Source: an uncultured Candidatus Saccharibacteria bacterium
Lineage (GTDB): Bacteria; Patescibacteriota; Doudnabacteria; UBA920
Length of the DNA: 64,000 nt
Direction of reading: 5' to 3'
Assembly: GCA_964436545.1 (NCBI GenBank)
Contig: CAYTCJ010000003.1
Span: forward strand, 3,168-67,167
The notes below the pieces were generated by a model. That model was not told the origin of the DNA. It saw only the letters and a program-made list of their open reading frames with translations, and did not search any database. The position numbers and the translations under genes are program-made. Of this stretch, positions 960 through 61,516 are shown in pieces; positions within the stretch are counted from its first letter, which is position 1, and each line of letters opens with the position of its first letter.

Positions 960-1281
960 TTTTTGTTCTTTCCAGTTTGGAATGGCTCGTCTCCCTACGG
1001 GAGACAGGCAAGTTTTGGTAGCAAAATTGTTCTGATATTGCAAGTAAAGCAATTTTATTATTGTCATGCTGAATTTATTTCAGCATCCAGTTGACATATA
1101 GATTCTGAAACCCACCAGAGGTTGGCAGGCAAGTTCAGAATGACAGAGGAAATTTATTTTCTTTATATTGCTATACAATGATAGGTGTTTTGCTCCCCAA
1201 GCTTGCCTTGCCTTGGTTCTATCCCATGGACTTTAAGGCAGGGTCATTCCTCCAAATCTCAAAAGGGGGAGTGAATAGAAA

Positions 1282-2636: not shown

Positions 2637-3566
2637 ATGCGAGAACGACTTACCATTACTTTAAAACAAGACTTGTTAGAGGCTTTAGATGCCAATATTG
2701 ATGGCGATAAACTTAGAAACAGAAGTCATGCCATTGAATATTATTTGTCTAAAAGTTTAGGGCAAAAAGCTCTTAAAGTGTTAATTTTAGCCGGAGGCAA
2801 ACCGGTAGATTTTGGTAAAGCTCATGGCGGAAAATTACCCAAGGCAATGGTAAAAATTGCGGGTAAGCCACTCTTAGAACAAACTTTGCTAAAATTAAAA
2901 TCTGCCAAATTTAAAGATATCATTATTTCTCTGGGTGAAGGGGGTAAAACTATTAGAGACTATTTTAAAACCGGCGAAGCTTTAGGTTTGCATATTCAAT
3001 ATATTGAACAAGACAAGAGTGTTACCGGGCCGGCCAGCGCCCTCCTTCAGGCAAAAAAATGGGTAGACAATAGTAATTTTTTGTTAATTTATGGAGATGT
3101 GCTTTCGGATATAGATTTTTCTGATTTAATCCAATTCCATTCTTTAAACAAACCCTCCATTTGCACTATGACTTTAACTTCCACTGAAAGCATTGGGCTT
3201 TGGGGTTTGGCCAAACTGCAGGGCAGTCGGGTGGTGGAATTTGAAGAAAAACCGCAAAATCCTAAAACTTTTTCTCGGCTCATTAACGCCGGTATATATT
3301 TAATGGAACCGGGAATTTTTAAATACATTTCACCCCCTCCCAGCCTCCCCCCTCCCTCCTACGCCAAGGCTTCGGAGGACAGCCAAGGGGGAGGAATAAA
3401 GGTGGGGGGAAGTAAATTAGAAAGTGGAATTTTGCCTCGGCTCGCGGAAGAAGGAAAGTTATATGGGTATGTGTATGAAGGTTTATGGTTAGATATTAGT
3501 AATAGCGCAGTGTATAAACAAGCCATAAAAGAAATGAACAAGAATGACAAAAATGAACAAGAATGA
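2637..3566 (+). CDS. Ribbon-helix-helix (CopG-like) DNA-binding domain fused to NDP-sugar pyrophosphorylase (mannose-1-P guanylyl / glucose-1-P thymidylyltransferase-like)
   Basis: The N-terminus MRERLTITLKQDLLEALDANIDGDKLRNRSHAIEYYL has a strand-helix-helix RHH pattern. It is followed by LILAGGKPVDFG...GKPLLEQTL, the G-rich NTP-transferase signature loop. The gene also contains an in-frame GC-rich palindromic insert (see 3333-3410). Confidence 0.7.
   Translation: MRERLTITLKQDLLEALDANIDGDKLRNRSHAIEYYLSKSLGQKALKVLILAGGKPVDFGKAHGGKLPKAMVKIAGKPLLEQTLLKLKSAKFKDIIISLGEGGKTIRDYFKTGEALGLHIQYIEQDKSVTGPASALLQAKKWVDNSNFLLIYGDVLSDIDFSDLIQFHSLNKPSICTMTLTSTESIGLWGLAKLQGSRVVEFEEKPQNPKTFSRLINAGIYLMEPGIFKYISPPPSLPPPSYAKASEDSQGGGIKVGGSKLESGILPRLAEEGKLYGYVYEGLWLDISNSAVYKQAIKEMNKNDKNEQE
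3333..3410. repeat. GC-rich palindromic element inserted in frame in the nucleotidyltransferase gene
   Basis: Sequence ccccctcccagcctcccccctccctcc...ggaggacagccaagggggagg...ggtgggggg has C-run and G-run inverted symmetry. It encodes a Pro/Gly-rich stretch (ISPPPSLPPPSYAKASEDSQGGGIKVGG) that interrupts an otherwise ordinary low-GC gene. Confidence 0.6.
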
Positions 3567-5652: not shown

Positions 5653-7023
5653 ATGAGGATAATTGCCGACCTCCAAATTCATAGTAAATATTCTCGTGCT
5701 TGTTCCCAAGACCTTAATCCACAAAATATTGGCTTGTGGGCGCAAAAAAAAGGTATTCAGGTTATTGGCACCGGGGATTTTACGCATCCCAAATGGCTTT
5801 TGGAGTTAAAGGAGAATTTGGTAGAAGCAAAACCGGGGTTGTATCGATTGCGATCTAATTCGGGTCATTCAAATACTATTCGTGGATTCGGGTCGGCTCA
5901 TTTTATGCTTACTGCGGAAGTTTCGAGTATTTACAAACAAGGCGACAAAGTAAGGCGGGTGCACAATATGATTCTGGCGCCGAACTTTCAGGCAGTTGAT
6001 AAAATTATTGCCGGCTTAGAAAAGCGAGGAGCTAATTTAAAAAGTGACGGCCGACCGATTATGGGCATTAAGTGTCCGGATTTGGTAAAGCTGGTTAAAG
6101 AGGCCTCCTTAGAAGCGGAAATTATTCCGGCGCATGCTTGGACTCCGCACTTTGGCGTGTTTGGTTCCTTGTCGGGTTTTAATAGCATAGAGGAAGCGTT
6201 TGGTGAGGAGGCAAAACACATTTTTGCCATTGAAACCGGCCTGTCAGCTGACCCAAAAATGAATTGGCAAATTTCATCGCTCGACCAGTATGCTTTGGTG
6301 TCTAACAGCGATGCGCATAGTTTAAGAAAACTGGGGCGGGAGGCCAATGTGTTTGAAATAGAGGAGAAAAAATTATCTTATGCGGAAATAATTCGCGTGA
6401 TTCGGAATAAAGATCCCAAAGAATTTCTTTACACTTTGGAATTTTTTCCCGAGGAAGGCAAATACCATTTAGATGGCCATGCCGATTGCAAATTTTCTTG
6501 TGAACCTTTGAAAACCCAAAAATTAAAAGGGGTTTGTCCGGTGTGTGGAAAAAAATTATTGGTGGGTGTGTTAAGTCGGGTAGAGGCTTTGGCCGATAGA
6601 GCCTATGGGTTTATGCCGAAACGGGCTGTGCCTTTTAAAAATGTAATTCCGTTAGAAGAAATTATTGCCGATGTGCTGGGTGTGGGGGTGGCATCTAAAC
6701 GAGTGGTGGAGATGTATGAGCGAATGGTGAACTCCTCCCGACCTCCTCTTTCGAAAAGAGGAGGGGTATTGCAGTCACCCCCTCTTTCTTTAAAGAGGGG
6801 GGAGGGGGAGTTGTGTGATGAGTTTTCCATTCTTCTCGATTTAACCGAAGCGCAAATTACCGCCATCTCGAATCCAGCCATAGCCCAAGCCATCATCCGC
6901 GTTCGCGAAGGTAAGGTTAAACTAGAAGGTGGGTATGATGGCGTGTTTGGTAAAATTGAAATTTTTAGCCAAGCAGAAAGGGAAAAATTGTTTTTAAAAC
7001 CTAAACAAGTAACTTTATTTTAA
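5653..7023 (+). CDS. PHP-domain nuclease, endonuclease Q-like (TIGR00375-like) with C4 zinc finger
   Basis: The N-terminal IADLQIHSKYS motif is PHP-type. CEPL...CPVCGKK forms a zinc ribbon. The overall length and layout resemble EndoQ. The gene carries an in-frame palindromic insert (6733-6812). Confidence 0.6.
   Translation: MRIIADLQIHSKYSRACSQDLNPQNIGLWAQKKGIQVIGTGDFTHPKWLLELKENLVEAKPGLYRLRSNSGHSNTIRGFGSAHFMLTAEVSSIYKQGDKVRRVHNMILAPNFQAVDKIIAGLEKRGANLKSDGRPIMGIKCPDLVKLVKEASLEAEIIPAHAWTPHFGVFGSLSGFNSIEEAFGEEAKHIFAIETGLSADPKMNWQISSLDQYALVSNSDAHSLRKLGREANVFEIEEKKLSYAEIIRVIRNKDPKEFLYTLEFFPEEGKYHLDGHADCKFSCEPLKTQKLKGVCPVCGKKLLVGVLSRVEALADRAYGFMPKRAVPFKNVIPLEEIIADVLGVGVASKRVVEMYERMVNSSRPPLSKRGGVLQSPPLSLKRGEGELCDEFSILLDLTEAQITAISNPAIAQAIIRVREGKVKLEGGYDGVFGKIEIFSQAEREKLFLKPKQVTLF
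6733..6812. repeat. Tandem pair of GC-rich hairpins inserted in frame in the EndoQ-like gene
   Basis: Two perfect hairpins, cctcctctttcgaaaagaggagg and cccctctttctttaaagagggg(ggaggggg). They encode SSRPPLSKRGGVLQSPPLSLKRGEGEL. Confidence 0.65.
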
Positions 7024-7779: not shown

Positions 7780-9057
7780 TTAGTTTATTAGTAATTCCTC
7801 AATCTTCATTAACCGGTTATATTTACACACCCGCTCGCCTCGGGTGGGGCCGACTTTAATCCACTCACTACCCATGGCCACGGCAAGGTCAACTAAGAAA
7901 GTGTCATTGGTTTCGCCCCCGCCTCGGTGGGAGGGAATAGTGATGAAATTATATTTTTTAGCTAAAAGGCAAGCCTCGACGGTTTCACTCACCGTGCCGG
8001 CTTGGTTAAGTTTAATTAAAATCGCATTGGCGCATTTTTCATCTATGGCTTTTTGCCAAAGTTTTGCATTAGTTACGGTTAAGTCATCGGCCACAATTTT
8101 TACTGTGCCCGCTTGGCTCATTAATTTTGGCCAATTGCTCCAGTCAAATTCCGAGAGACCGTCTTCCAAAGCTATAATCGGATATTTACGAAACCAATCC
8201 GCATACATAGCAATTATTTCGTCGGAAGTTAGCAGTTTTTTATCCACTTTTAAACTATATTTATTATCACTCAGGAATTCCGAAGCCGCAGCGTCTATGT
8301 AAATGCCCGCATCTGTGATAGCTTGATAGCCGGCTTGTTCTATGGCCTTAGTAAGAATTTGTAAAGGCAGTTCATTGCTGGTAATTCCGGCCGGCGCAAA
8401 AGCGCCTTCGTTGCCGACGTTGGTGTTAAACCCTTGTTGTTTTAAAAGGGTTTTGGTGGCTTGATAAATTTCTTCCATCATTTGCACGTTGGCCTTAGCA
8501 GATTGGTTTTTATTTACCGCTAAAATATACTCTTGTAAATCGGTAGAATTATCGGCATGTTTACCGCCTTCAATAAACACGGCAAGGGGACGAGGTAAGT
8601 TGTAAGTTGTAAGTTGCCTGTCTGCGGACAAGGCAGGTAAGTTGTAAGTATTAGCTAGATATTCATATAATTCCAAGTTTGCATCAGTGGCAGCAGCGCG
8701 GGCAATGGCCATGGAAACCCCCAAAATGGCATTGGCACCCAAATTACTTTTGTTTTCCGTGCCGTCTGCGTCAATCATAAGCCTATCAATTTCCTGTTGA
8801 GCTTTTGCCTCTTTGCCAATTAGTAGAGGTGCGATTTTTGTATTAACATTTGCCGTGGCCTGAAGCATACCTTTGCCGTTATAGCGTTTCACTTCACTAT
8901 CGAGCAAAACAAAAGCTTCTTTACTGCCTGCCGACTCGCCATAAGACACGCTGGCTGTGCCGACACAATTATTTTCTAAGACAACGTCCACCTCTAAAGA
9001 GGGCGCGCCACCGCTAGCTAAGATTTCTCTTGCAAAAATGTGTTTGATTTTGGTCAT
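7780..9057 (-). CDS. eno: Enolase (phosphopyruvate hydratase)
   Basis: The SHRGGGETNDTF(LV)DLAVA signature and the overall 425-aa alignment pattern match Eno. The gene contains an in-frame repeat insert (8595-8650). Confidence 0.9.
   Translation of the reverse strand: MTKIKHIFAREILASGGAPSLEVDVVLENNCVGTASVSYGESAGSKEAFVLLDSEVKRYNGKGMLQATANVNTKIAPLLIGKEAKAQQEIDRLMIDADGTENKSNLGANAILGVSMAIARAAATDANLELYEYLANTYNLPALSADRQLTTYNLPRPLAVFIEGGKHADNSTDLQEYILAVNKNQSAKANVQMMEEIYQATKTLLKQQGFNTNVGNEGAFAPAGITSNELPLQILTKAIEQAGYQAITDAGIYIDAAASEFLSDNKYSLKVDKKLLTSDEIIAMYADWFRKYPIIALEDGLSEFDWSNWPKLMSQAGTVKIVADDLTVTNAKLWQKAIDEKCANAILIKLNQAGTVSETVEACLLAKKYNFITIPSHRGGGETNDTFLVDLAVAMGSEWIKVGPTRGERVCKYNRLMKIEELLIN
8595..8650. 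repeat. Palindromic unit flanked by GTAAGTTGTAAGT repeats, inserted in frame in eno
   Basis: Plus strand reads gtaagttgtaagttgtaagttg-cctgtctgcggacaaggcagg-taagttgtaagt. On the coding strand it encodes TYNLPALSADRQLTTYNLP, which has a duplicated TYNLP flank. This sits where other enolases have a short loop before the GGxHADN motif. Confidence 0.65.
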
Positions 9058-11229: not shown

Positions 11230-11233
11230 CCAG

Positions 11234-11966
11234 ATGGGCATCTTCAAGGGGATTCCCCTTGAAGATGCCCATCGAGGGAATATGAATCATCGAGATTATA
11301 AACAATTTGCCCCTTTAACCTCCCATCATATTTATAATCGGGGAAATGGAAAGCGAGATATTTTTTTGGATGCGGATGATTATAATTTTTTTCTATATCG
11401 CCTGAAAGAAAATCTTTTTCCCACCTTGAAGATGCCCATCGAGGGGAGTGTATTTAATAATTCGCATACTCCATATAAACGCAAAACCTTGCCTAGCGGA
11501 GCATTTTCTTTATTGGCTTATTGTTTGATGCCAAATCATTTTCATTTACTAATCCAACAGAATTCGTTATTGCCTGTGAGTAAGTTATTAGCCAAAGTTT
11601 GTACAAGTTATAGTAAATATTTTAACAAAAAATATGATAATATTGGTGGAGTCTTTCAAGATCAATTTAAAGCAGTTTTAGTTGTTAGTGATACTCAACT
11701 GCTTTGGCTTTCAGCGTATATTCATCAAAACCCGGTAATAGCAGGAATTATAAAAAAGATAGAGGATTATCAATGGTCTAGTTATTTAGATTTGGTGGGT
11801 TTAAGGCAAGGGAGTCTTTGTGATAAAAGTTTTTTTGTGAAAATGGTTGGTTCTAAAAATTCTTATAAAAAATTTGTTGATGAAAGTTTTGAAAAAATTA
11901 AACAACGGAAGGACATTAAGAATTTACTAATAGAATAGTACCCCCCTTGAAGATGCCCATCAAGGG
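11234..11966 (+). mobile_element. RAYT (REP-associated tyrosine transposase) unit flanked by REP hairpins
   Basis: REP-like hairpins cccTTGAagatgcccatCgAggg occur as an inverted pair at 11234-11273, again at 11425-11447 (inside the gene) and again at 11941-11966. The enclosed CDS has HuH and Tyr motifs. Confidence 0.7.
11283..11938 (+). CDS. IS200/IS605-like Y1 HuH transposase (REP-associated tyrosine transposase)
   Basis: HFHLLI is the HuH motif, and YIHQNPV supplies the downstream catalytic Tyr. The track ORF start at 11234 is encoded by the REP palindrome, so the ATG at 11283 is the more likely start. Confidence 0.7.
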
Positions 11967-27500: not shown

Positions 27501-27565
27501 GTTCCGCCAGCTGGCGGATCAGCGGTACCTGCCTCTACCTGTCGGCAGACAGGTGCCGGCAGGCA
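27501..27565. repeat. Cluster of GC-rich palindromic units (ccgccagctggcgg; cctgtcggcagacagg; gccggcaggcagg)
   Basis: Perfect short palindromes lie in an otherwise AT-rich intergenic region. The same units recur at 61356-61373, 55731-55750, 45491-45512 and 8617-8635. Confidence 0.65.
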
Positions 27566-27595
27566 GGGAGCAATCGGCTTCAGAATAAAGAAAAT

Positions 27596-27874
27596 ATGTA
27601 TTGTGTTTATGCAATCATTAGCCAAATAAAAAATAGAATTTATGTAGGACTGTCCCACGATCCCTTTAAAAGGCTTACCGAACATAATTTAGGAGAATGT
27701 AAATCCACTAAAGGTTATACACCTTGGAAATTGTTTTTTATCGAAACTGACCATCAATCTTTAAATTCTGCAAGAAATAGTGAAAAGAGATTGAAGAGCG
27801 GTTTTGGTAAAGAATTTTTAAAAACTTTACCGAAAGAAAAAATTTCATATTATTCGGGAGTAGCTCAGCGGTAG
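27596..27874 (+). CDS. GIY-YIG nuclease family protein (small, standalone)
   Basis: MYCVYAII...RIYVGLSHDPFKRLTEHN matches the GIY-YIG core. The 3' end overlaps the tRNA-Asn 5' end, and the track start at 27419 lies in repeat DNA. Confidence 0.6.
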   Translation: MYCVYAIISQIKNRIYVGLSHDPFKRLTEHNLGECKSTKGYTPWKLFFIETDHQSLNSARNSEKRLKSGFGKEFLKTLPKEKISYYSGVAQR

Positions 27875-27928
27875 AGCAATCGGCTGTTAACCGATGGGTC
27901 CTGGGTTCGAATCCCAGCTCCCGAGCCA
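27854..27928 (+). tRNA. tRNA-Asn (anticodon GUU)
   Basis: Acceptor stem tcgggag/ctcccga, D-arm gctcagcggtagagc, anticodon loop ct-GTT-aa, T-arm ctgggttcgaatcccag, discriminator G and an encoded CCA. Confidence 0.85.
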
Positions 27929-27967
27929 CGCTAAGCGTGGCTGTACCCCCGCTTAGCGGGGGAGCCA
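27914..27967. repeat. 54-bp direct repeat copy 1 (tRNA-Asn 3' end + two downstream hairpins); attL-like
   Basis: ccagctcccgagccacgctaagcgtggctgtacccccgcttagcgggggagcca is identical over 54/54 nt to 32357-32410. Confidence 0.8.
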
Positions 27968-28038
27968 CAGATACGTTTAGTGCAGTTAAGAAAACCTTGC
28001 TAGTTGCGAGGTTTTTCTTTTAGGTTTAAAATTTAATC

Positions 28039-28308
28039 ATGTTTTATGTATACATCTTGCATAGTCAAAAAGATGGTTTGTTATATACTGGCTACACACC
28101 TGATCTCAAAAATCGGATAAAGTCCCACACAGCAGGTTATGTTATAGCAACTAAACATCGCCGTCCTTTAAAGCTTATTCATTATGAGGCTTTTTTGTTC
28201 GAGTCAGATGCCAAACGGCGTGAACTGTATCTTAAAGGTGGTAATGGTAAAAAAGAGTTAGAACAAATTTTAGAAGATTATTTTAAAAGCAATCCTTGGA
28301 ATAAATGA
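28039..28308 (+). CDS. GIY-YIG nuclease family protein (second paralog)
   Basis: MFYVYILHSQKDGLLYTGYTPDLKNRIKSH matches the GIY-YIG core (YVYIL...YTGYT...R...H). Confidence 0.65.
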   Translation: MFYVYILHSQKDGLLYTGYTPDLKNRIKSHTAGYVIATKHRRPLKLIHYEAFLFESDAKRRELYLKGGNGKKELEQILEDYFKSNPWNK

Positions 28309-28375
28309 TAGGTTAGCTTTATTAAATATAAAAGCTTGTCAAAAATTCAGACTTGCCTCTTATTTTTTTATATAT

Positions 28376-28909
28376 ATGTACAAAAAGTTTATTTTTTGCC
28401 GAGATATTAAAAATAAGAAATATAAGGTTAAAATTGACCAATTAAATTTTCGTCCGGCAGTATACGGACTGATTTTTAAAGGTAATAAAATATTATTAAG
28501 TAGACAAGGAGACGGTTATGATTTTCCAGGTGGTGGTGTAGACAAGGGAGAGAAACTTGAAGATGCATTAAAACGTGAGGTTTGGGAAGAAACAGGAGTA
28601 AAAATAACGTCTGGAGATTTAGTTTATGTTACCCAAGATTTTTTTATTAGCATCCAGAGTAGAAAAAGAATTCATTCCATTCTTGTATATTATCTATGCA
28701 AGAAACCAAGTGGTAAAATTTCGACCAAGCATTTTGATGGTTATGAAAAGAGCTATTTAAAAGCAGCAGAGTGGATTGATTTAAAAGATGTAAAAAAACT
28801 GCATTTCTACAATGCAGTTAATAGTCCAAAACTTATCAAGCAAGGTTATGAACTTTATAAAAGGCTTTATGAATCAACAATACAAGTTTCAATTAGCAGG
28901 CAACAATAG
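28376..28909 (+). CDS. NUDIX hydrolase
   Basis: Nudix box GGGVDKGEKLEDALKREVWEETGV (GX5EX7REUXEEXGU). Confidence 0.8.
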   Translation: MYKKFIFCRDIKNKKYKVKIDQLNFRPAVYGLIFKGNKILLSRQGDGYDFPGGGVDKGEKLEDALKREVWEETGVKITSGDLVYVTQDFFISIQSRKRIHSILVYYLCKKPSGKISTKHFDGYEKSYLKAAEWIDLKDVKKLHFYNAVNSPKLIKQGYELYKRLYESTIQVSISRQQ

Positions 28910-28921
28910 AAAATAAATTAT

Positions 28922-29785
28922 ATGCCAGAAAGGCCAACATCAGAAGAATTAAATAGATCTATTGAAGAAGGAATTATGACATTCCAAGAGTATGCAAAAA
29001 AGGAGCACGATGTTCCTTATGTTTTTGAATTGAAGGAAGGGAGTAAATCACTTACCTATTACGGGGCTGGTCACTCGCATAATCCTGAAGATCCTATGTT
29101 TGTAGATATTGAACAAAGATTTAAAGCGCCACATCCTCAAGTAGTTATAGTTGAAGGAGTAAATCAATTAGTAGAACAAAAAGAACGATTCAGAAGTACC
29201 TTGAGAGGGGTAACTCGTGAAGGAGTAATAAAAAAAATGGGTGAATCTGCTTTCGCTCTAAAATTAGCAATGGATTCCAATATAGAAGTAGAATCACCGG
29301 AACCGCAATTAAGCGAAGAAATACAATATTTAATACAAACAGGTTTCGAGAAAGAAGATATTTTTGCTTTTTATCTTTATCGTTCGGCAAATCAATATCA
29401 AAGAACTCCCCAGACCCCAAGTATAGAAGAATATTTACAGCCAGACGCAGAGGAGTTTAAAGCCGCAACAAATTGGGAAAATTTTGATTATTCAATTGAA
29501 AATCTAAAAACCATCGGTCATAGGTTATGGGGAAATAGGAGTGCTTTAGATAGTGCAGAATTTTCAGAAGAACGTATTGACCCTGTCCCTTGGGATGAAA
29601 AGAAAGATGAACAAACAGTAGTAAATCAAATAGCGGCTCAGTCCAGCTTTTTTCGTGATAGATTTATGGTAAAACGATTACAAAAAATACTAAAAGAAAA
29701 AGATAGTGTGCTTGTAGTTTTTGGTGTAAGTCATGCATATATGCAAGAACCAGCTTTAAGAAAAATATTTGAAAGTTTTAAATAA
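28922..29785 (+). CDS. TraB/GumN/Tiki-family-like protein (tentative)
   Basis: An N-terminal YYGAGHSH and a C-terminal VVFGVSHA resemble the paired GxxH motifs of the Tiki/TraB/PrgY family. Similarity is judged by eye only. Confidence 0.35.
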   Translation: MPERPTSEELNRSIEEGIMTFQEYAKKEHDVPYVFELKEGSKSLTYYGAGHSHNPEDPMFVDIEQRFKAPHPQVVIVEGVNQLVEQKERFRSTLRGVTREGVIKKMGESAFALKLAMDSNIEVESPEPQLSEEIQYLIQTGFEKEDIFAFYLYRSANQYQRTPQTPSIEEYLQPDAEEFKAATNWENFDYSIENLKTIGHRLWGNRSALDSAEFSEERIDPVPWDEKKDEQTVVNQIAAQSSFFRDRFMVKRLQKILKEKDSVLVVFGVSHAYMQEPALRKIFESFK

Positions 29786-29850
29786 GAAAGTATGTGCTCA
29801 TTAGACTGCCTAAATAAGGTCCCAACCATTTCTACTGTGTTGAACCAAAC

Positions 29851-29880
29851 AAAAACCACTATTTAGATAGTGGTTTTTGT
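29851..29880. terminator. Rho-independent terminator (aaaaaccactat-ttag-atagtggttttt)
   Basis: A perfect 12-bp stem followed by a T-run. Confidence 0.75.
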
Positions 29881-30115
29881 TTGGGGAAAGTGGTAATATA
29901 TTAAAAATAAGCAGGTTATATTTTTGTCAAAAATTCAGACTTGACCCTATTCTAGACAGTGGGTTTATCTTGGCATGATAAATTGGCACCGACTAAAGGC
30001 ATATTTGGTTTTAATGATTGGGGTAGTTTGCTATTTGGGTATGGTATTTTGTTCTTTATCGTGGGAAAAGTTGTAGCATGGTTTCAACGCCCTTAACTGT
30101 AAATTTGTTAGCGTT

Positions 30116-30144
30116 AAAAGCCTGGACGAAACCAGGCTTTTTTG
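30116..30144. terminator. Rho-independent terminator (aaagcctgg-acgaaa-ccaggctttttt) just upstream of the MOSC gene
   Basis: A 7-bp GC-rich stem followed by a T-run. Confidence 0.7.
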
Positions 30145-30160
30145 ATAGACTAAAGGGTCT

Positions 30161-31069
30161 TTGAATCAAATCGAAGAAGAAAGGAGCAGGAGGGTGAAAG
30201 TATCAGAACTCTACGTTTACCCAATTAAATCGTGCCGTGGAATTGGGCTTTCGGAAGCTCGAGTCAACGCGCGCGGAATTGAACACGACCGGGAGTATAT
30301 GGTCATAGACGCCGATACGGGCATGTTCGTAGCCCAGCGGCAGGACAACGGTCTCGGCATCGAAATCAAGAGCATGTGCCAGGTGAAGACGAAACTCCAA
30401 CCCATGAACTTCATTCACATCTGGGCACCGGAAATGAGGGGCGTGCACATTAACCCCAAACTGGCCGGTAGCGAGATGCGGGTTCAGGTCTGGAAGAACG
30501 GCGGCATCCTGGCTTATGACATGGGCGACTTTTTGGCCGATTGGTTTACCAAGTTCCTAAGTCGCGAACGGCCTGGCAAGTATCGTCTGGTGCGTATGAC
30601 CGACGACTTCATCCGGCGGGCCAAGATCGGTGACGCTCAAGTGGGTTTCGCCGACGCTTACCCGTTCATGGGGATCGGCTGCAGCGCACTCGGGGAACTC
30701 AACCGACGGTTGGCGGTCAAACGCCATCCCGAACTTCCCATGAACCGCTTCCGGCCGAACATCGTGTTTGGCGACGCTGCTCCGCACTCCGAAGACCACA
30801 TGAAGGTCATCAAAATCGGCGACGAGGGCGGCGTAATCCTCGACGGTATGACGCTATGCGAACGCTGCCCCTTGCCCTGCACGGATCAGGAAATCGCTGT
30901 GCGGACCAAGGAACCCAGCGCCACCTGGGCGGAATATCGTCGCGGTCGGCACATCGGTATCACCGATCCGACAAAACAGGGAGCTGTCTTCTTCGGGCGT
31001 AACTTCAACCACCGCGGACCCGGTTACATCAAGGTCGGCGACTACGTGGAGATTCTGGAATCGGACTAG
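30161..31069 (+). CDS. MOSC-domain protein (MOSC N-terminal beta-barrel + MOSC; YcbX/mARC-like), high-GC
   Basis: VSELYVYPIKSCRG is the MOSC_N signature. The more likely start is the GTG at 30194, preceded by aaggagcaggagg. GC is about 60% against a background under 40%. Confidence 0.75.
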   Translation: MNQIEEERSRRVKVSELYVYPIKSCRGIGLSEARVNARGIEHDREYMVIDADTGMFVAQRQDNGLGIEIKSMCQVKTKLQPMNFIHIWAPEMRGVHINPKLAGSEMRVQVWKNGGILAYDMGDFLADWFTKFLSRERPGKYRLVRMTDDFIRRAKIGDAQVGFADAYPFMGIGCSALGELNRRLAVKRHPELPMNRFRPNIVFGDAAPHSEDHMKVIKIGDEGGVILDGMTLCERCPLPCTDQEIAVRTKEPSATWAEYRRGRHIGITDPTKQGAVFFGRNFNHRGPGYIKVGDYVEILESD

Positions 31070-31170
31070 CACTCGAGGCGTGGGCCGTTGACCTTAACCG
31101 GCAACGATTCACGCTTCTCATCTTAGCAAATCAAGGATTGGTTTATTGAGATGAGAAAAGAAGGAGGAGT

Positions 31171-31437
31171 ATGTTAGCAATCGCACGCTTAATGGTGCAT
31201 ATGCACCACCACATTTGGGCGATTCTTGTGGTGTTTCTTGTAGGAGTCGGAGCTTTTGTTCTCGGCTCTTACATCCAAAACGCAATTGCCCGCAACGTGG
31301 TTTTCGGTATCGCAATCATCGCTGTGGCGTTTGTCATGGCGACGGGCGCTTCTATCGGCCCTATGGACGACTGGCAGCACCAGCACGGAAGCTGCCTGCT
31401 CGAAACAATCGACCAAATGCAGAGAGGTAAAAAGTGA
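31171..31437 (+). CDS. Small hydrophobic membrane protein, His-rich N-terminus, high-GC
   Basis: 88 aa with two predicted TM helices. It is translationally coupled (ATGA-type overlap) to the downstream amidase. Coding status is moderately likely. Confidence 0.45.
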   Translation: MLAIARLMVHMHHHIWAILVVFLVGVGAFVLGSYIQNAIARNVVFGIAIIAVAFVMATGASIGPMDDWQHQHGSCLLETIDQMQRGKK

Positions 31438-32117
31438 AGCTACGCAATCTGTTGTTCGTGCTCATGGTTCTGTCTGTCGCTTTCGGGTGCGCCAATGCGC
31501 AGTCGCCGCAAAAGCAGCCCGAATGGCAGGCCAACTGGTTCCCCATTAACTGGGAGGCGGAGAAGATTGAGAAACAAATCGTCACCGATACAATCTTCAT
31601 CCACCATACGGCATGGGAACCGAACGCCACATGGCAGCGGCTGTCCGAGGAGCAGAAAAAACGGCTCTACGATGCCCGCTACGCCATCGCCGACAAAGAC
31701 CCGTTCGTGCAAGGCGAGCCGTCGCACTCGGGTCACTATCGCTTAGTGGACGGCAAATTGGTGGAAGTGTTTTACGCCTACCACTGGATAGTCCGGCAAG
31801 ACGGTAAGGTCGAACGGCTTCTGGATGACCGCGAAGTCGGCTGGCACGCCGGCAACTGGGCGGAGAACATGCGGTCAGTGGGTATTGTTTTCGATGGCGA
31901 CTACAGCAAAAAGCCGCCGCCGAAGAAAGCGCTCAAGGCAGCAGCCAAGCTCATCCAGCAATACGTCCAGCAGTATCCGACAATTACCCGCCTCAAGGCA
32001 CACCAGGACGTGCGCAAGACCGAGTGCCCGGGTGCATGGTATCATGCGGCAGACAAGCACGGGCAGACCGGCCGGGACCGACTGCTCAAATACGCAAAGC
32101 TAATATTGTCCGAGTAA
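31434..32117 (+). CDS. N-acetylmuramoyl-L-alanine amidase, Amidase_2/PGRP (T7-lysozyme-like) family, secreted; high-GC
   Basis: Signal peptide. IFIHHTAWEP, GWHAGNWAENMRSVGIVFDGDY and HQDVRKTECPG match zinc amidase_2 catalytic motifs. Confidence 0.75.
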   Translation: MKLRNLLFVLMVLSVAFGCANAQSPQKQPEWQANWFPINWEAEKIEKQIVTDTIFIHHTAWEPNATWQRLSEEQKKRLYDARYAIADKDPFVQGEPSHSGHYRLVDGKLVEVFYAYHWIVRQDGKVERLLDDREVGWHAGNWAENMRSVGIVFDGDYSKKPPPKKALKAAAKLIQQYVQQYPTITRLKAHQDVRKTECPGAWYHAADKHGQTGRDRLLKYAKLILSE

Positions 32118-32137
32118 GTGTTCGGACTAACTGTGGG

Positions 32138-32173
32138 GCGCACGTTCAAGCTGGACGTGCGCTTCTTCTTTTT
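32138..32173. terminator. Rho-independent terminator (gcgcacg-ttcaagctgga-cgtgcgc-ttcttcttttt)
   Basis: A GC-rich 7-bp stem plus a T-rich tail directly after the amidase stop. Confidence 0.7.
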
Positions 32174-32356
32174 CCATATAAGCCTTTCTAATACGCTGCA
32201 CATATCGGAGCCATAAGAAATTCATTCCATTTTGGGATGGATTTTTTATTTCTAGATACTGGTATGAGAAGTTTATCCGCCTCTGGCGGAAATCCCGCCT
32301 ACAATAATTTGAATTGCTTTAGCAATTCATAGTGGAAGTGCCATAAAACTTTATGG

Positions 32357-32410
32357 CCAGCTCCCGAGCCACGCTAAGCGTGGCTGTACCCCCGCTTAGC
32401 GGGGGAGCCA
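32357..32410. repeat. 54-bp direct repeat copy 2 (partial tRNA-Asn 3' end + hairpins); attR-like
   Basis: Identical to 27914-27967, but no full tRNA precedes it. It is preceded by the palindrome gccataaaactttatggc. Confidence 0.8.
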
Positions 32411-38183: not shown

Positions 38184-39149
38184 TTATTTGTTTGAGACTT
38201 CGGCAGGGGGAGTTTGGGAGTTTTGGTAAGACAGGGCGGTAATGGCACCTAGCAGAATCAGCCCGCCTACAATTTGCATTATCGCCAGTTGACCCCCTGG
38301 AATAAATATCCAATTAATAATTACTGCAGAAAAGGGGAAAGCTAATTCGCACAAAGTGGCAATGCTCGCTTTGGTATGCTGTAAGCCTTTGTAGTAAATA
38401 AATAAAGAAACAAAGCCCGCAATTGTGGCAATAATTAAAACAAATAGCCAATCTTTAGTGGTGGCGTGAGCAATTTCGCCCCAATGGCCTTGGTATGTTT
38501 GGAAGGCCAATAAAAATCCGCCTGCGGTTAAAAACCGAATAGCAGTTAAGGCCTGAAAAGAGAGTTGATTTAAAAGTTTTCTGCCAAACACAGTCGAGCC
38601 TGCCCACAGCCCGGCTGCCAGTAAAGCTAATAAGACGCCTTTGAGGTTAGGGTTAAAGCTTTCGCCCGGGTAAAGTTGAGGTGTAAAGTTAGGGAAACTT
38701 AGCAAATACGCGCCCAAGATCGCAAAGCCAGACCAGAGCCAAAATTTGGCTGAAAGTTGTTCTTTTAAAAAGATAACGGCTAACAGAATGGCAATAATGG
38801 GCTGAATTTTTTGGAGGAGAATGGCTACCGAAGGGTTAACATAGTGAAAGCTTTGGGTAAAGGCTATGGTAGCCAGTGCACTGCCTCCTATACCAATAAA
38901 GACAACATACCCCCACTCTAGGCGGGTTAAAGTTTTTAGTTCGGACAGGTATTTATTTAAAAACCATAACACTAAAACCGCAATCACCAAATGCTCCATA
39001 AGCACAATAGTGCCGGAAGATAGATCGCCGGTTAAATATTTTCTAAAGGGCGCATCTATAGTCCAAAGCAGAGCAGAGAAAAAAACTAACCAAGGCGCAA
39101 AACGAGATGAAAGCATAGGGGAAATAGAGTTATGAATTATGTCCCGCAA
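38184..39149 (-). CDS. DMT-superfamily transporter (EamA-like, 10 TM)
   Basis: Two EamA-like halves with about 10 hydrophobic helices. Confidence 0.7.
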   Translation of the reverse strand: MRDIIHNSISPMLSSRFAPWLVFFSALLWTIDAPFRKYLTGDLSSGTIVLMEHLVIAVLVLWFLNKYLSELKTLTRLEWGYVVFIGIGGSALATIAFTQSFHYVNPSVAILLQKIQPIIAILLAVIFLKEQLSAKFWLWSGFAILGAYLLSFPNFTPQLYPGESFNPNLKGVLLALLAAGLWAGSTVFGRKLLNQLSFQALTAIRFLTAGGFLLAFQTYQGHWGEIAHATTKDWLFVLIIATIAGFVSLFIYYKGLQHTKASIATLCELAFPFSAVIINWIFIPGGQLAIMQIVGGLILLGAITALSYQNSQTPPAEVSNK

Positions 39150-39180
39150 AGCGGGATCCGCCTTTGGCGGAAATTATGAA
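39141..39180. repeat. Palindromic element: gtcccgcaaagcgggat + ccgcctttggcgg + aaattatgaa
   Basis: Two perfect hairpins. A longer version with an extra middle unit lies at 55711-55770. Confidence 0.7.
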
Positions 39181-39292
39181 GTATGAATAAAGCTTCAGAC
39201 AGAGTGGTTAAGAGTCAGATGACAAAGCTTTGGGTTTTTGCTAAAGTAAATTAATTAGCGATGGATAAATTATACCATAATAATAAAAAAAT

Positions 39293-39726: not shown

Positions 39727-39849
39727 TGTCATTCCGGAACCCTGAGTGCATCCGAAGTGGTATCCGGAATCTACACAAAAATAGCATGGATCCCGGATAT
39801 CCCGCCTTTTGTTCCCAAGAGCGGAATTCCGGGATGACACAACAAAGAT
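39727..39849. repeat. MITE-like element with 13-bp terminal inverted repeats (tgtcattccggaa / ttccgggatgaca)
   Basis: The terminal inverted repeats have one mismatch. Inside are repeats of atccggaat / atcccggat and a ccgcctttt unit. The track ORF at 39726-39908 is probably non-coding. Confidence 0.6.
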
Positions 39850-42790: not shown

Positions 42791-43471
42791 TTATGAAGGT
42801 TGAATATTTATTTTTTTAATGATTTTTATTAATTCCCCCATATGGTGAATAATAAAGTGGGGCTTGTGTTGTTTTAAGCGTTTTTCGGTATTATAACCGC
42901 CGGTAATGCCTACGGTATAATAGCCTAATTGTCTGCCAATTTCAATTTCTTCTTCGGTATCGCCAATGCTTAAGACTTCGTGGGGTTTAAATTTTTGAGT
43001 TTTCACATAACTCGCTAATTTTTCGCCTTTACTGCGTTTGTGAAGCAAGCCTTCGTCTTTATGGGTTCTGGCTAAAATGGTGGTAATGTAAGGTTTTAAA
43101 TGTAAACGGTGGAGTTGCCGGTTAATTAATTCCACAATATGGTTGGAATAAATAATGCTGTGATAGTGGTTGGTTTTTAGCCAAGTGAGGGTTTGGCGAA
43201 CGCCGGCTCGGCTCCGGCATCTGGTAGCTTGGCTTTCGTAGATATCGTTATAGATTTTTTCTATTTCATCCATATGCTGGGAAAAAAATTGTTCATCCAT
43301 ACCCACTCGTTTCCAATATTCAATAATGGGAATATGAAAGCACTGGCGAAATTTATTTATGCCAATGGGCGGGTGACCAAATTTTTTTAAGGCAATGTTT
43401 TCGGCCTTGACCGCAGTTTGGGTGTCGGACAAAAGCGTGCCGTTCCAGTCAAAAGCAATGAGTTTGAGCAT
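42791..43471 (-). CDS. HAD-superfamily hydrolase (phosphoglycolate phosphatase-like)
   Basis: FDWNGT motif I, with motifs II and III present. The track ORF extends to 43576 through repeat DNA, so the ATG at 43471 is the likely start. Confidence 0.7.
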   Translation of the reverse strand: MLKLIAFDWNGTLLSDTQTAVKAENIALKKFGHPPIGINKFRQCFHIPIIEYWKRVGMDEQFFSQHMDEIEKIYNDIYESQATRCRSRAGVRQTLTWLKTNHYHSIIYSNHIVELINRQLHRLHLKPYITTILARTHKDEGLLHKRSKGEKLASYVKTQKFKPHEVLSIGDTEEEIEIGRQLGYYTVGITGGYNTEKRLKQHKPHFIIHHMGELIKIIKKINIQPS

Positions 43472-43790
43472 AGAGAAGAGGGGCAGGTTGGTAAGTTGTA
43501 AGTAAGTTGTAAGAAGAGATATTAGAGAAGCAGGGTAAGTTGCCTGCCGGCAGGTAAGTAAAGTATACCAGCTCATTGAGACTCAGTAAACAAGCGAGAG
43601 AAGATAAGTTAAATTGCGATGCTAATATGCGAATACATGCTAATAATGCGAATAAATCCATATAGCCATTGGCTAATAGGCAGGTAAGGAGAGAGGGATA
43701 GAGATTAGAGAAGAGGGATTAGAGATTAGAGAAGAGAGAAGTAGGGAGTAGATAGGGAAAAAGAAAAAAGTAAAAAAATTAACAAGGTGC
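43472..43790. repeat. Low-complexity/short tandem repeat region containing a gtaagttg-cctgccggcagg-taagt unit
   Basis: It holds GTAAGTTGTAAGT, AGAGATTAGAGAAG and GAGAAGAG repeats. The 43533-43557 unit is of the same kind as the eno in-frame insert. Confidence 0.6.
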
Positions 43791-45254: not shown

Positions 45255-47081
45255 ATGCTTAATGATAATTTATCAGCATTACATTCTCTAATGGGGTTTG
45301 AGGGGGAAGTAGACAACAGTGAAGATACTTTAATCAAATACAGTCATGATGCCAGCATTTTTGAAGTGAGGCCCATGGGTGTGGTGCATCCGAAAAATAG
45401 TGAAGATGTAAAGAATGTGGTGAAGTGGGTGGTAAGCCAAAGGCAAGATAGTTTAACTTTGAATACAGATGACTCAGAGCGTCATCCTGAACCTGCCTTG
45501 TCGTCAGGCAGGCTTGTTTCAGGATCCCATATAAATGGATTCCGAAATAAATTCGGAATGACAAATGGAGATAAAGCTTCTGTAAATAAAGGGGGGGAGT
45601 TATCTATTACAGCTCGGAGTGCCGGCACAGATATGTCGGGCGGGCCACTTAATACTGGAATAATTGCCGACTTTACCACGCATTTTAATAAAATTTTAAA
45701 CTTTGGGCCGAATTTTGTAGAAGTAGAGCCGGGGGTATATTACCGCGACTTTGAAGTAGAAACTTTAAAACGCGGACTACTTTTGCCATGTTATACGGCT
45801 TCCAAAATGCTGAATACCGTGGGCGGAATGGTGGGCAACAATAGCGCGGGTGAAAAAACTTTGGCGTATGGGCAAACTAAAGATTTTGTAGAAGAATTAA
45901 GCGTGGTATTGAGTGATGGAAATGAATATCAATTTAGTGAATTGGAAAGTAGAGAATTAGAGAGTAAACTAAAACTCCCGAATTTTGAAGGTGATATTTA
46001 CCGAAAAATCTATCAGCTCATTAAAGATAATCGCGATTTAATTCAAAACGCCAAACCCAAAACCAGTAAAAATTCCGCCGGATATTTACTGTGGGAAGTA
46101 TGGGATGGTATAAAATTTAATTTAGCCAAATTAATTGTAGGCAGTCAGGGGACATTGGGCCTTGTTACGAAAATTCGGTTTCGGCTGGTAGAGCCTAAGC
46201 CTAAGTCTGCTTTGCTGGTGATGTTTTTAAAAGACTTGAATAATTTGGGAGAAATTGTGGCAGATGTGGTAGAACATAAGCCGGAAAGTTTTGAAAGTTA
46301 TGATGATAAAACTTTAAAACTGGCCATAAAGTTTTTGCCCGCCATGGTAAAGAAGATGTCCAAAACCGCTGGGTCGGCTTTTGGTGGCATTCTAAACATG
46401 TTAAGTTTGGGTTGGCAGTTTATGCCCGAAGCGGTTATGACTTTAACTGGCGGAATGCCTAAGCTGGTATTAATTTGTGAGTTTACCGGCACGAGCCAAG
46501 AAGCAGTAAATGAAAAAGCCAGTTTACTCCAGCGGGAAGTGGAAGGGAAATTTCATATCCAAACTCGGATTTGTCAAAATAAACAAGAAGTGGAAAAATA
46601 TTGGACCATAAGGCGGGAGTCGTTTTCTCTTTTACGGGAGCGCATTAAAGACCGGCACACCGCCCCCTTCATAGATGACATTGCGGTCCTGCCCAAAGAT
46701 ATGCCAGCATTTTTACCGCGGTTAAATAAAATTTTGGAAAAATATCAGGACAAAATTATTTACACCATTGCCGGACATGCGGGGAATGGCAATTTTCACA
46801 TCATTCCCTTAATGAATTTGGCGGACGAAAACCAGCGCGCGATAATTCCTCAACTTTCCGAAGAAGTTTATAGTTTGGTTTTGGAATTTCATGGGACAAT
46901 TACGGCAGAGCATAACGACGGACTGATTCGCACCCCTTTTTTACAAAAAATGTATGGGAAAGAGGTAATAGGTTTGTTTGAAGCAGTAAAAAATATTTTT
47001 GATCCGCACAATATTTTTAACCCCGGCAAAAAAGTTCACGGGGATTTGGGGTATGCGATGGAGCATATTAAAAGAAGTTAG
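45255..47081 (+). CDS. FAD-linked oxidase (GlcD / D-lactate dehydrogenase-like, PCMH-type FAD-binding)
   Basis: ARSAGTDMSGGPLN and an N-terminal FAD-binding-4 pattern. The C-terminal domain ends NIFNPGK. Carries an in-frame ~80-nt palindromic insert (see 45480-45562). Confidence 0.75.
   Translation: MLNDNLSALHSLMGFEGEVDNSEDTLIKYSHDASIFEVRPMGVVHPKNSEDVKNVVKWVVSQRQDSLTLNTDDSERHPEPALSSGRLVSGSHINGFRNKFGMTNGDKASVNKGGELSITARSAGTDMSGGPLNTGIIADFTTHFNKILNFGPNFVEVEPGVYYRDFEVETLKRGLLLPCYTASKMLNTVGGMVGNNSAGEKTLAYGQTKDFVEELSVVLSDGNEYQFSELESRELESKLKLPNFEGDIYRKIYQLIKDNRDLIQNAKPKTSKNSAGYLLWEVWDGIKFNLAKLIVGSQGTLGLVTKIRFRLVEPKPKSALLVMFLKDLNNLGEIVADVVEHKPESFESYDDKTLKLAIKFLPAMVKKMSKTAGSAFGGILNMLSLGWQFMPEAVMTLTGGMPKLVLICEFTGTSQEAVNEKASLLQREVEGKFHIQTRICQNKQEVEKYWTIRRESFSLLRERIKDRHTAPFIDDIAVLPKDMPAFLPRLNKILEKYQDKIIYTIAGHAGNGNFHIIPLMNLADENQRAIIPQLSEEVYSLVLEFHGTITAEHNDGLIRTPFLQKMYGKEVIGLFEAVKNIFDPHNIFNPGKKVHGDLGYAMEHIKRS
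45480..45562. repeat. Compound palindromic element inserted in frame in the FAD-oxidase gene
   Basis: atcctgaa-cctgccttgtcgtcaggcagg-cttgtttcaggat followed by attccgaaataaattcggaat-gaca. It encodes ERHPEPALSSGRLVSGSHINGFRNKFGMTNG between the conserved FAD-binding segments. Confidence 0.65.
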
Positions 47082-55710: not shown

Positions 55711-55770
55711 GTCCCGCAAAGCGGGATCCCTGCCTTGTCGGCAGACAGGCGCCTTTGGCGGAAATTATGA
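55711..55770. repeat. Three-unit palindromic element: gtcccgcaaagcgggat + cctgccttgtcggcagacagg + gcctttggcggaaattatgaa
   Basis: A longer form of the 39141-39180 element. Its middle unit equals the eno and FAD-oxidase insert cores. AGAGAATAG tandem repeats follow it. Confidence 0.7.
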
Positions 55771-61355: not shown

Positions 61356-61373
61356 ATCCGCCAGCTGGCGGAT
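61356..61373. repeat. Palindromic unit atccgccagctggcggat
   Basis: Identical to the unit at 27503-27520. Confidence 0.7.
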
Positions 61374-61427
61374 TGATGCGGAATCTATAATTTATTTTCA
61401 ATTAGATTTTTATTTAAGGTAAGTCTG

Positions 61428-61516
61428 GATCCTGAAACCCCAATAGCAGAACCTTTGGTTCGCTACGGGGTAAACAAGTTTAGGATGACAATCAACAAGT
61501 TCAGGATCATTAAGAA
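61428..61516. repeat. Inverted-repeat element (ggatcctgaaac ... gttcaggatca)
   Basis: Terminal inverted repeats lie about 65 nt apart, using the same ATCCTGAA/TTCAGGAT arms as the FAD-oxidase insert. Confidence 0.5.

Follow-up and report, generated by a model that had tools for sequence, protein, structure and literature searches.

Short palindromic units, probably mobile, in a Doudnabacteria genome segment and the occurrence of one of them across bacterial phyla

What are the short GC-rich palindromes that recur, in different combinations, within a 64,000-nucleotide stretch of DNA from an uncultured bacterium of the Doudnabacteria (contig CAYTCJ010000003.1, positions 3,168 to 67,167), and how did they come to lie where they do? 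The stretch, referred to here as the window, has a G+C content of about 40%, a GC skew that is positive throughout and a majority of its genes on the + strand, and the nearest homologues of its enolase and FAD-linked oxidase are from uncultured Patescibacteria (candidate phyla radiation, CPR), several of which are named Doudnabacteria. The original prediction, made from the window alone, was of a modular family of small, mobile-like palindromic units, and this is borne out by exact insertions, by the nesting of units and by gain or loss of units between relatives. It is quite probable that the units are mobile mini-insertion elements. The fuller reading, which is favoured with less confidence, is that they are non-autonomous palindromic mini-elements resembling repetitive extragenic palindromes (REPs) and the small dispersed repeats (SDRs) of cyanobacteria, and that their movement most likely depends on a hairpin-recognising enzyme acting in trans.

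Hairpin units and their filled and empty sites

The unit families in the window are the 21-nt imperfect palindrome CCTGCCTTGTCGGCAGACAGG (the 21-mer), which has a 5-bp stem, together with its 12- and 16-nt relatives; paired 15-nt hairpins that make up a 30-nt module; an 18-nt palindrome; and REPs of 24-30 nt that carry a TGTC or CGTC tag and also occur as tail-to-tail dimers. Units are present at all six loci where the original prediction had placed them, as well as in the element it described at 39727-39849. The units other than the REPs are the following.

3355..3384, + strand: 30-nt hairpin unit CCTCCTACGCCAAGGCTTCGGAGGACAGCC within ORF 2637..3566 (3' part), occupying the loop of hairpin CCTCCCCCCTC/AAGGGGGAGG
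8617..8637, - strand: 21-mer in frame in the enolase gene, adding ALSADRQ (7 residues)
27502..27519: U4-type palindrome TTCCGCCAGCTGGCGGAT with a 16-nt perfect core; one mismatch relative to 61356; exact unit also in L014 (Paceibacterota)
27528..27567, + strand: nested hairpin CCTGCC-TCTA-[CCTGTCGGCAGACAGG]-TGCC-GGCAGG-CAGG; DNA fold -19.7 kcal/mol, z -3.2
32275..32293, + strand: U2 variant ATCCGCCTCTGGCGGAAAT
39142..39171, + strand: 30-nt two-hairpin module TCCCGCAAAGCGGGA + TCCGCCTTTGGCGGA, within TTATGAA / AATAAAG heptamer repeats
43543..43554, - strand: 12-nt palindrome CCTGCCGGCAGG in GTAAGTT heptamer repeats; target CTTA^CAACTTAC, as in enolase
45492..45512, + strand: in-frame 21-mer variant GTCAGGCAGG of the FAD-oxidase gene, seated in a CGTC-tagged REP loop, adding PALSSGR
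46359..46388, + strand: degenerate old copy of the 30-nt two-hairpin module within the FAD-oxidase coding sequence
55712..55762, + strand: three-unit composite in which the 21-mer follows base 17 of the 30-nt module
55729..55749, + strand: 21-mer CCTGCCTTGTCGGCAGACAGG in its canonical form
61356..61373: U4 palindrome ATCCGCCAGCTGGCGGAT

Insertion of these units as discrete blocks with exact boundaries, their nesting and their recent gain or loss between lineages are seen where relatives have the empty site. The ALSADRQ residues of enolase (gene 7780..9057, minus strand) are missing from all 11 aligned homologues, including ones that are 88% and 83% identical. At the DNA level, the related locus L002 has ...ACCTACAACCTA^CAACCTACAACC... 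at the place where ...ACTTACAACTTA[CCTGCCTTGTCCGCAGACAGG]CAACTTACAAC... stands in the window; the two differ by a gap of exactly 21 nt, and there is no duplication except possibly of one C. The 21-mer encoding PALSSGR in the FAD-oxidase gene (45255..47081) is missing from the 95%-identical homologue P0121 and its loci L003 and L004, and in L002 the host hairpin of the 3355-3384 unit is uninterrupted, which gives an exact empty site with no duplication. The composite at 55712-55762 is the module found at 39141 (two 15-nt hairpins) with the 21-mer inserted after base 17, in agreement with the original description of the two as one element with and without a middle unit, and the difference between them is exactly 21 nt. 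An ortholog of the composite whose 21-mer has one mismatch occurs in a sister lineage (L003/L248), and the composite is missing from three more distant relatives (L249, L250 and L251), which have only heptamer repeats at that place. The sister lineage carries a second whole copy of the three-unit composite upstream of a pilin-like gene, and the corresponding site in the window (~55020-55045) is empty. A comparison of insertion sites between strains, which had been proposed as a check, thus revealed presence or absence at the enolase, FAD-oxidase and 3355-3384 sites and at the second composite site. Given these filled and empty sites, at least three gains or losses separate two lineages whose DNA is ~81-91% identical.

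The original prediction had considered that some copies might be bracketed by target duplications. A perfect 12-bp flanking duplication, TTATGAATAAAG, was found at the second composite copy in L003/L248 only, and single units have none. The target AACTTA^CAACTTAC has been used by three independent insertions, those of the 21-mer in enolase, of the 12-nt relative CCTGCCGGCAGG at 43543 (a variant of which lies at the same position in the sister lineage) and of a 21-mer at CCTTATAACTTA^CAACTTACC in a 640-residue ORF of L118, a locus from the same assembly as L248. By its BRCT-like and zinc-finger-like motifs, judged by eye, this ORF looks like a DNA ligase. In a gene of an uncultured bacterium with 64% G+C (L072, 3900-5600), 6 of 13 consecutive WD40 repeats contain the 21-mer in frame, encoding LSADKAG on the coding strand, and the remaining repeats are exactly without it, a pattern which implies repeated insertion or conversion-driven spread among the repeats. 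None of the three frames of the units contains a stop codon, and in coding sequence the reading frame is kept by sizes of 21 and 30 nt. The degenerate module at 46359-46388 encodes SKTAGSAFGG, compared with SRKAGSAFGG from the intact module, and this 10-residue insert is patchy among aligned homologues, being present in P0121, P0123, P0136, P0140 and P0185 and missing from the others. The 30-nt module also occurs in three low-GC metagenome contigs (L214, L220 and L241).

Recurrence of the units within the window exceeds chance, as computed by shuffling with up to 3 mismatches allowed. The 17-mer GTCCCGCAAAGCGGGAT has two copies, both exact, at 39141 and 55711 (expected 0.13); the 18-mer ATCCGCCAGCTGGCGGAT is exact at 61356 and has one mismatch at 27502 (expected 0.02); CCGCCTTTGGCGGAAAT has three copies, at 39158, 55749 and 32277, far above the shuffle expectation; and the 21-mer has three copies within two mismatches (expected 0.00), at 55729, at 8617-8637 on the minus strand and at 45492-45512, the latter two both within long ORFs. 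These copies in genes, like the cross-phylum spread described below, were absent from the original prediction. The units had been called perfect hairpins, and GC-rich perfect hairpins are indeed in excess: 43 with a stem of at least 6 bp occur in the window compared with 18 +/- 4.4 (maximum 28) in 40 first-order Markov simulations, a ~2.4-fold excess, and 11 with a stem of at least 7 bp compared with 2.5. The 21-mer, with its imperfect 5-bp stem, does not fit that description. As DNA, every unit folds into a stable hairpin, and folds of the 21-mer and of the 15+15-nt module range from -4.6 to -6.8 kcal/mol (z -2.5 to -4.6). In the nested hairpin at 27528..27567, the inner 16-mer CCTGTCGGCAGACAGG has 14 nt in common with the 21-mer (TGTCGGCAGACAGG, the 3' end of the 16-mer), and the 27501 block as a whole lies ~30 nt upstream of a GIY-YIG gene starting at 27596. 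The Logan assembly of SRR11567520, which is independent, matches the window at 100% identity in four contigs (15 kb in total) that span the units at 8617, 27501, 39141, 39727 and 61356.

Seven REPs occur in the 64-kb window at four loci (1062-1145, 39727-39839, 45480-45563 and 61425-61490), one of which is a dimer within a gene.

1062..1090, + strand: TGTC-tagged REP, TGTC ATGCTGAA TTTAT TTCAGCAT CCAG
1098..1145, - strand: TGTC-tagged REP with ATTCTGAA stem and 24 nt in its loop, tail-to-tail partner of 1062-1090
39727..39774, + strand: TGTC-tagged REP forming the left half of the proposed MITE; its loop holds 24 nested nt
39786..39839, - strand: TGTC-tagged REP forming the right half of the proposed MITE; its loop holds 30 nested nt
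45480..45529, + strand: CGTC-tagged REP within the FAD-oxidase coding sequence, CGTC ATCCTGAA (loop CTTGT + 21-mer) TTCAGGAT CCCA
45535..45563, - strand: TGTC-tagged REP, TGTC ATTCCGAA TTTAT TTCGGAAT CCAT, tail-to-tail partner of 45480..45529
61425..61490, - strand: TGTC-tagged REP, ATCCTAAA/TTCAGGAT stem with one mismatch, two-level nested hairpin in its loop

The REP stems (ATGCTGAA, ATTCTGAA, ATTCCGGA, ATCCCGGA, ATCCTGAA, ATTCCGAA and ATCCTAAA) are 8 bp long and begin with AT; six of the seven are perfect and one has a single mismatch. An unpaired TGTC or CGTC tag precedes all seven on the 5' side, and the tails are CCAG, CCAT, CCCA, CCAT and CCAG in five and CTAT and CTAC in two. The loop is TTTAT in the two uninterrupted REPs and CTTGT in the FAD-oxidase REP once its 21-mer is removed, which is the empty form seen in L003. 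Loops of 24-39 nt that resemble nested inserts are found in the four other REPs, for which no empty forms were found; in all, five of the seven have 21-39 extra loop nucleotides, which fold as further hairpins. Three of the loci are dimers, all of them tail-to-tail. The element at 39727-39849 had been likened to a MITE (a miniature transposable element with inverted repeats), and although it reads as described, it consists of two opposed TGTC-tagged hairpins and is a tail-to-tail REP dimer. MITEs are defined by terminal inverted repeats (TIRs) and target duplication at a size of 50-500 bp; the inverted ends of 39727-39839 match at 11 of 12 bases, but neither a visible duplication nor an empty site was found for it, and single units insert with no duplication. 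The REP dimer and nested 21-mer within the FAD-oxidase coding sequence form part of a ~40-residue insert that is missing in most homologues. A further GTC-tagged palindrome, GTCACCCCCTC...GAGGGGGG, lies at 6774-6809 near the 3' end of ORF 5653..7023, and ~19 nt are missing there in the L002 ortholog.

The hairpins typically lie within tandem heptamer tracts (GTAAGTT, TTATGAA, GAATAGA), and AATTATGAA, an item of the earlier description, had to be reassigned to such tracts flanking hairpins. Heptamer tracts occur in many gene leaders (43471-43565, 39115-39195, 55765-55800 and 47960-48030 in the window, 14590-14650 in L003, 610-700 in L249 and 355-410 in L250). They are wholly different in close strains, with GTAAGTT, TTATGAA, GAATAGA and AGCTAAT/AGCTGAC in the window compared with ACGAAAT, GGTATTA and ACAAATT in relatives, and in L249 and L250 an ACAAATT tract extends into the 5' end of a PilX-like coding sequence. 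The FAD oxidase has two surface positions (residues ~60-115 and ~365-380) at which short inserts differ by CPR lineage (PPLTPPFEKGG and TTPSASQTPLLEKEG, for example), and in other lineages it has long inserts at two further positions; the alignment suggests recurrent insertion hot spots.

The 21-mer across bacterial phyla

A scan for CCTGCCTTGTCNNCAGNCAGG in 185,579 species genomes (one per species, 596 Gb) returned at least 118 stretches, compared with 3.6 chance matches expected if all of this DNA were 40% G+C and 17 if it were 50%. The cross-phylum spread of the 21-mer is therefore far above chance, although the few unusual variants that come from high-GC genomes probably represent chance matches. 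Assigned by record title, the matches listed comprise 72 from Bacteroidota, 15 from Ignavibacteriota/Chlorobiota, 8 from CPR, 7 from Proteobacteria, 4 from Neomarinimicrobiota, 3 from Omnitrophota, 2 from Bdellovibrionales and 7 from others, including Binatia, Dehalococcoidia and Tectomicrobia; there is no cyanobacterium among them. The carriers include cultured isolates and chromosome-level metagenome-assembled genomes (MAGs; OZ accessions). The unchanged 21-mer is found in Algoriphagus marincola DSM 16067, in Eudoraea adriatica DSM 19308 and in species of Arenibacter, Maribacter and Croceitalea, and since these are cultured Bacteroidota, movement of REP-like hairpins without a dedicated transposase could be studied in the laboratory.

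The statistics that follow refer to the matches listed, which hold 125 copies from at least 118 stretches. The three free positions of the pattern read GG..A, as in canonical CCTGCCTTGTCGGCAGACAGG, in 86 of the 125 copies, where the chance probability is ~0.012. G stands at -1 in 88 of the 125 and A at +1 in 3, and A or T is favoured at -2 and -3; the sites preferred read A-(A/T)-G^C. The contexts are otherwise unrelated, no other non-trivial 13-mer being common to at least 6 of the loci. Copies lie within a host hairpin (stem of at least 6 bp) in 17% of cases compared with 6.8% of control positions, a 2.5-fold difference that represents a tendency rather than a rule and is not significant for the 18-nt unit. 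Some of the host hairpins are TGTC-type REPs, in which the same loop position is taken in either orientation, and the 21-mers of L043 and of the window occupy the same REP-loop position in opposite orientations. ORFs of at least 120 residues contain 44% of the copies compared with 77% of random positions.

The motifs of the window thus occur in other genomes and are not unique to it, which the original prediction had named as an outcome that would count against a dispersed family. The other units are less widespread: the 17-nt and 12-nt units are missing from the 118 loci listed, and the 18-nt palindrome occurs in them once, in L014 of the Paceibacterota. The 18-nt unit in the form GTCCCGCAAAGCGGGATC has many metagenome matches, which are weak evidence of a shared element since its paired bases leave ~11 independent positions. 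The 21-mer has 0 matches in IMG/VR viral contigs and no true match in PLSDB plasmids, and carriage by phages or plasmids was rejected on these results. The idea that the 21-mer represents the joined ends of a larger insertion sequence, or an excision footprint, was also rejected, as no split halves were found and half-matches were point variants only. A protein-based metagenome search for the locus around 41 kb gave no match. In the literature, no paper was found with the 21-mer or 17-mer string, shorter REP sub-strings turned up only in unrelated papers, and searches by concept returned only papers on REPs, REPINs (mobile REP doublets) and MITEs; the available part of a 2024 review of prokaryotic MITEs yielded no element as small.

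Candidate enzyme, rival explanations and known systems

How might such units move? Self-contained hairpin units are added as precise blocks, without target duplication, to A/T-rich heptamer-repeat tracts, to loops or stems of existing hairpins or to coding sequence. They accumulate by nesting, with a weak preference of the 21-mer for A-(A/T)-G^C, and landing within existing hairpins accounts for the modular composites. The enzyme would act in trans on extruded or single-stranded hairpins, and a candidate class is that of the Y1/HUH enzymes, an example of which is encoded by the ORF at 11234. That copying occurs in trans, that the substrate is single-stranded DNA or a hairpin, and which enzyme acts on it are all inferred. 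Duplication-free insertion beside a short target, together with dependence on a hairpin, is a hallmark of HUH/Y1 single-strand transposases such as TnpA of IS200/IS605. Even so, it seems rather doubtful that the mover is a Y1 enzyme. The local gene of this type resembles those for REP-associated tyrosine transposases (RAYTs), which have been proposed as movers of REPs (PMC2817692, PMC3116915).

11234..11938, + strand: RAYT-like Y1 (HUH) transposase gene (Pfam Y1_Tnp), a candidate trans-acting enzyme only

The product of this ORF scores 54 bits with NCBIfam REP_Tyr_transpos, below the cut-off of 80, and has an HUH-like HFHLL motif. An inverted repeat of its own (17-19 nt, CCTTGAAGATGCCCATC) brackets the gene in the region 11229-11965, standing at 11233 (-), 11257 (+) and 11945 (+); one more copy lies at 11424 inside the ORF. 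The gene was rejected as the cognate RAYT of the units because these flanking repeats differ from them, in keeping with the original prediction that the family has no obvious cognate transposase in the window. At the syntenic site L002 has a PIN-domain gene instead, and the Y1 gene has therefore itself been gained or lost between lineages. A Y1-like ORF is present in 3 of the 118 loci listed, which was judged unremarkable.

Several points weigh against the view that the units are mobile elements moved in trans. The four copies of CCTTGAAGATGCCCATC are all at the Y1 gene, and this repeat differs from the units. No recurrent nuclease or transposase family was found beside the 21-mer when 1,779 ORFs were clustered (118 loci listed). 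A strict lagging-strand mechanism of the IS200/IS605 type predicts an orientation bias, but among the matches listed none was found relative to local GC skew (51 versus 64, p = 0.26), the 8-kb skew used being a noisy proxy. To our knowledge, a single 21-nt hairpin is smaller than any demonstrated substrate of a Y1 transposase. With only ~11 independent positions in GTCCCGCAAAGCGGGATC, unrelated hairpins could converge on the 18-nt unit. The gain and loss events are few, and neither an excision product nor a fresh insertion was directly observed. Moreover, the reuse of one 14-nt target and the 12-bp duplication at the composite copy fit homology-driven copying equally well.

Homology-driven copying is the main rival, though an unlikely one. 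It dispenses with a transposase and invokes short-patch templated copying (template switching or gene conversion) between short homologies, promoted by hairpin stalling and slippage-prone heptamers. Three insertions share the 14-nt flank AACTTA^CAACTTAC, which in enolase belongs to a coding repeat of heptamer-like form; units lie within repeated hosts (REP loops and the 30-nt module); heptamer tracts are highly variable between strains; and the composite copy of L003/L248 is flanked not only by the duplicated TTATGAATAAAG but also by an extra duplication of the heptamer tract. On the other hand, most of the 125 21-mer contexts among the matches listed are unique, sharing A-W-G^C only, with no other 13-mer in common, and primary insertions of the 21-mer therefore cannot depend on flanking homology. 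The opposite orientations of the L043 and window 21-mers at one REP-loop position likewise speak against this rival. An RNA intermediate, with transcription, reverse transcription and integration as reportedly suggested for cyanobacterial SDRs, is a very unlikely explanation. It would suit the many copies in transcribed regions, coding sequences included, and the close likeness to SDRs, as reportedly described, in size, hairpin form, nesting and setting in heptamer tracts. Among the ORFs of the window, however, 22 of which were scanned against Pfam or NCBIfam, a reverse transcriptase was not noticed; no protein family recurs beside the copies in the 118 loci listed; the boundaries are without poly-A or any other signature of retro-elements; and the Rfam matches in the window are two tRNAs only, from which it follows that no known RNA family explains the units.

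More improbable still is that the hairpins are ordinary selected sites (terminators, mRNA stabilisers or protein-binding sites) that do not move. Stable DNA folds and the position of several units between genes accord with such functions, and E. coli REPs bind gyrase and integration host factor (IHF) (discussed in PMC3733652). Several units, however, lie 5' of genes or between divergent genes, two are in essential-type genes, and units are present or absent between close relatives. Membership of a known terminator class, the other outcome that had been named as adverse to the original prediction, is not what was found, since units have no T-tracts and lie 5' of genes or within them. The intergenic units of the original prediction all lack a T-tract, and a terminator scan picks other hairpins, flagging among the units only the 21-mer and one REP in the FAD-oxidase coding sequence; rho-independent terminators were rejected because the units are without T-tracts, no intergenic unit being called by the scan. 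A regulatory role of single copies could nevertheless coexist with mobility. Least credible of all is an artefact of assembly or library preparation, such as adapter-like hairpins, for which the only argument is that short palindromes are involved. It is refuted by the 100% identity of the second assembly, by the in-gene copies that keep the frame and by the presence of the 21-mer in cultured isolates and the chromosome-level OZ MAGs.

A bolder form of the mobile-element reading is possible, if on the whole unlikely. The 21-nt CCTGCCTTGTCGGCAGACAGG might be the smallest known self-contained mobile element, present across phyla, moved by unrecognised machinery or a ubiquitous housekeeping enzyme, exchanged horizontally without phages or plasmids and routinely adding 7 residues to proteins; the window would then show it at work beside a local set of comparable hairpin modules.

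The general kind of element to which the units belong, the miniature palindromic repeats of REP/SDR type, is already known. Di Nocera, De Gregorio and Rocco (2013) described CGTC-tagged REPs that consist of the tag, an 8-9-bp stem starting with A-T, a 4-5-nt loop and a CCA-type 3' tail (PMC3733652). These REPs form dimers, have copies in genes, insert in other palindromes, have "no dedicated transposase" and are present in Bacteroidetes and Chlorobi (PMC3733652). The seven window hairpins share the tag, an 8-bp stem starting with AT, mostly a CCA-type tail and, where uninterrupted, a 5-nt loop. Head-to-head dimers predominate in the published set and tail-to-tail ones are rare, whereas the three window dimers are all tail-to-tail; CPR hosts are not covered there, and systematic nesting of smaller hairpins in loops is not described (PMC3733652). 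The 21-mer, the 15-nt hairpins and the 18-nt palindrome are not members of this family because they have no terminal tag. The local Y1 gene resembles the TIR-flanked tyrosine transposase of Di Nocera (PMC3733652). REPIN-RAYT systems (Bertels and Rainey 2011, PMC3116915; Nunvar et al. 2010, PMC2817692) have in common with the window a REP doublet as mobile unit, the presence of a Y1 gene and the absence of target duplication. In such systems the REPs on either side of the RAYT gene belong to the dispersed set; this defining feature is not seen in the window, where the flank is CCTTGAAGATGCCCATC.

Rickettsia palindromic elements (Ogata et al. 2000/2002), as cited in PMC3733652 and PMC10969869, are ~100-150 bp long, occur in one genus and lie in frame in genes, where they are tolerated as surface peptides. 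In-frame insertion is shared with the units of the window, but single units are 21-30 nt and only the FAD-oxidase REP-dimer block reaches ~120 nt; furthermore, the Rickettsia elements are genus-specific and the 21-mer is found across phyla.

The SDRs seem closest to the 21-mer and 30-nt module, being alike in size, hairpin form, heptamer context and nesting, a likeness drawn from their description and not from SDR sequences. Elhai et al. (2008) are said to have described SDR1-8 of cyanobacteria as repeats of ~21-27 nt, several of them hairpin-forming, which lie in heptamer repeats or mini-transposons, are nested and were judged recently mobile; they are reportedly confined to one subgroup of heterocyst-forming cyanobacteria. 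We know of no enzyme for SDRs. The units described here differ in that they occur in CPR, the 21-mer being in many phyla with no cyanobacterium among the matches listed, and in their frequent in-frame insertion in genes. The mobile GC clusters and double-hairpin elements of fungal mitochondria are GC-rich palindromes in A/T-rich genomes, where they lie in spacers and occasionally genes, and for these, too, no enzyme is known to us. They are organellar and have no sequence relationship with the units, and the comparison is one of analogy only. What appear to be new are the occurrence in CPR, the systematic assembly of hairpins within hairpins with dated gain or loss in housekeeping genes, and the letter-for-letter 21-nt unit across phyla.

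If the units are truly mobile, the lower size limit of transposable DNA would be ~20 nt, and the phenomenon would extend well beyond one cyanobacterial subgroup. The units are an overlooked source of protein length variation, as in enolase, the FAD oxidase, the DNA-ligase-like ORF and the WD40 repeats. They can also create spurious small ORFs, and they give fine-scale strain markers in reduced CPR genomes. Short-read assemblies may be broken by them: a REP or a repeat stands at, or just before, the ends of Logan contigs L246 and L247.

Neighbouring observations

A 4.4-kb segment (27854-32410) lies directly after tRNA-Asn and has a perfect 54-nt direct repeat on each side (27914-27967 = 32357-32410), which contains the final 15 nt of the tRNA-Asn gene and two GC hairpins. 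Its G+C is uneven, being ~0.33 at 28-30 kb and 0.54 at 30-32 kb, and its genes encode a second small GIY-YIG protein, a NUDIX hydrolase, a MOSC protein and an amidase. The segment looks like an integrated island, and no integrase was found among the five ORFs that were scanned against Pfam. The two GIY-YIG genes, 27596-27874 (92 residues) and 28039-28308 (89 residues), are stand-alone and flank tRNA-Asn; no link between them and the hairpin units was established.

The segment 47144-48033 of the window and the corresponding 5785-6829 of L003 do not align, and each contains a GC-rich minus-strand ORF (163 and 189 residues, respectively) that is full of GC hairpins. The 163-residue ORF of the window has no NCBIfam match, and the 189-residue ORF of L003 has no Pfam family on record. 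At 61340-61542, the window has 200 nt with the 18-nt palindrome and a nested REP where in L248 (14045-14760) there is an ORF of 224 residues for which no Pfam family is recorded; the difference reflects either loss of the gene, with hairpin elements at the scar, or its insertion.

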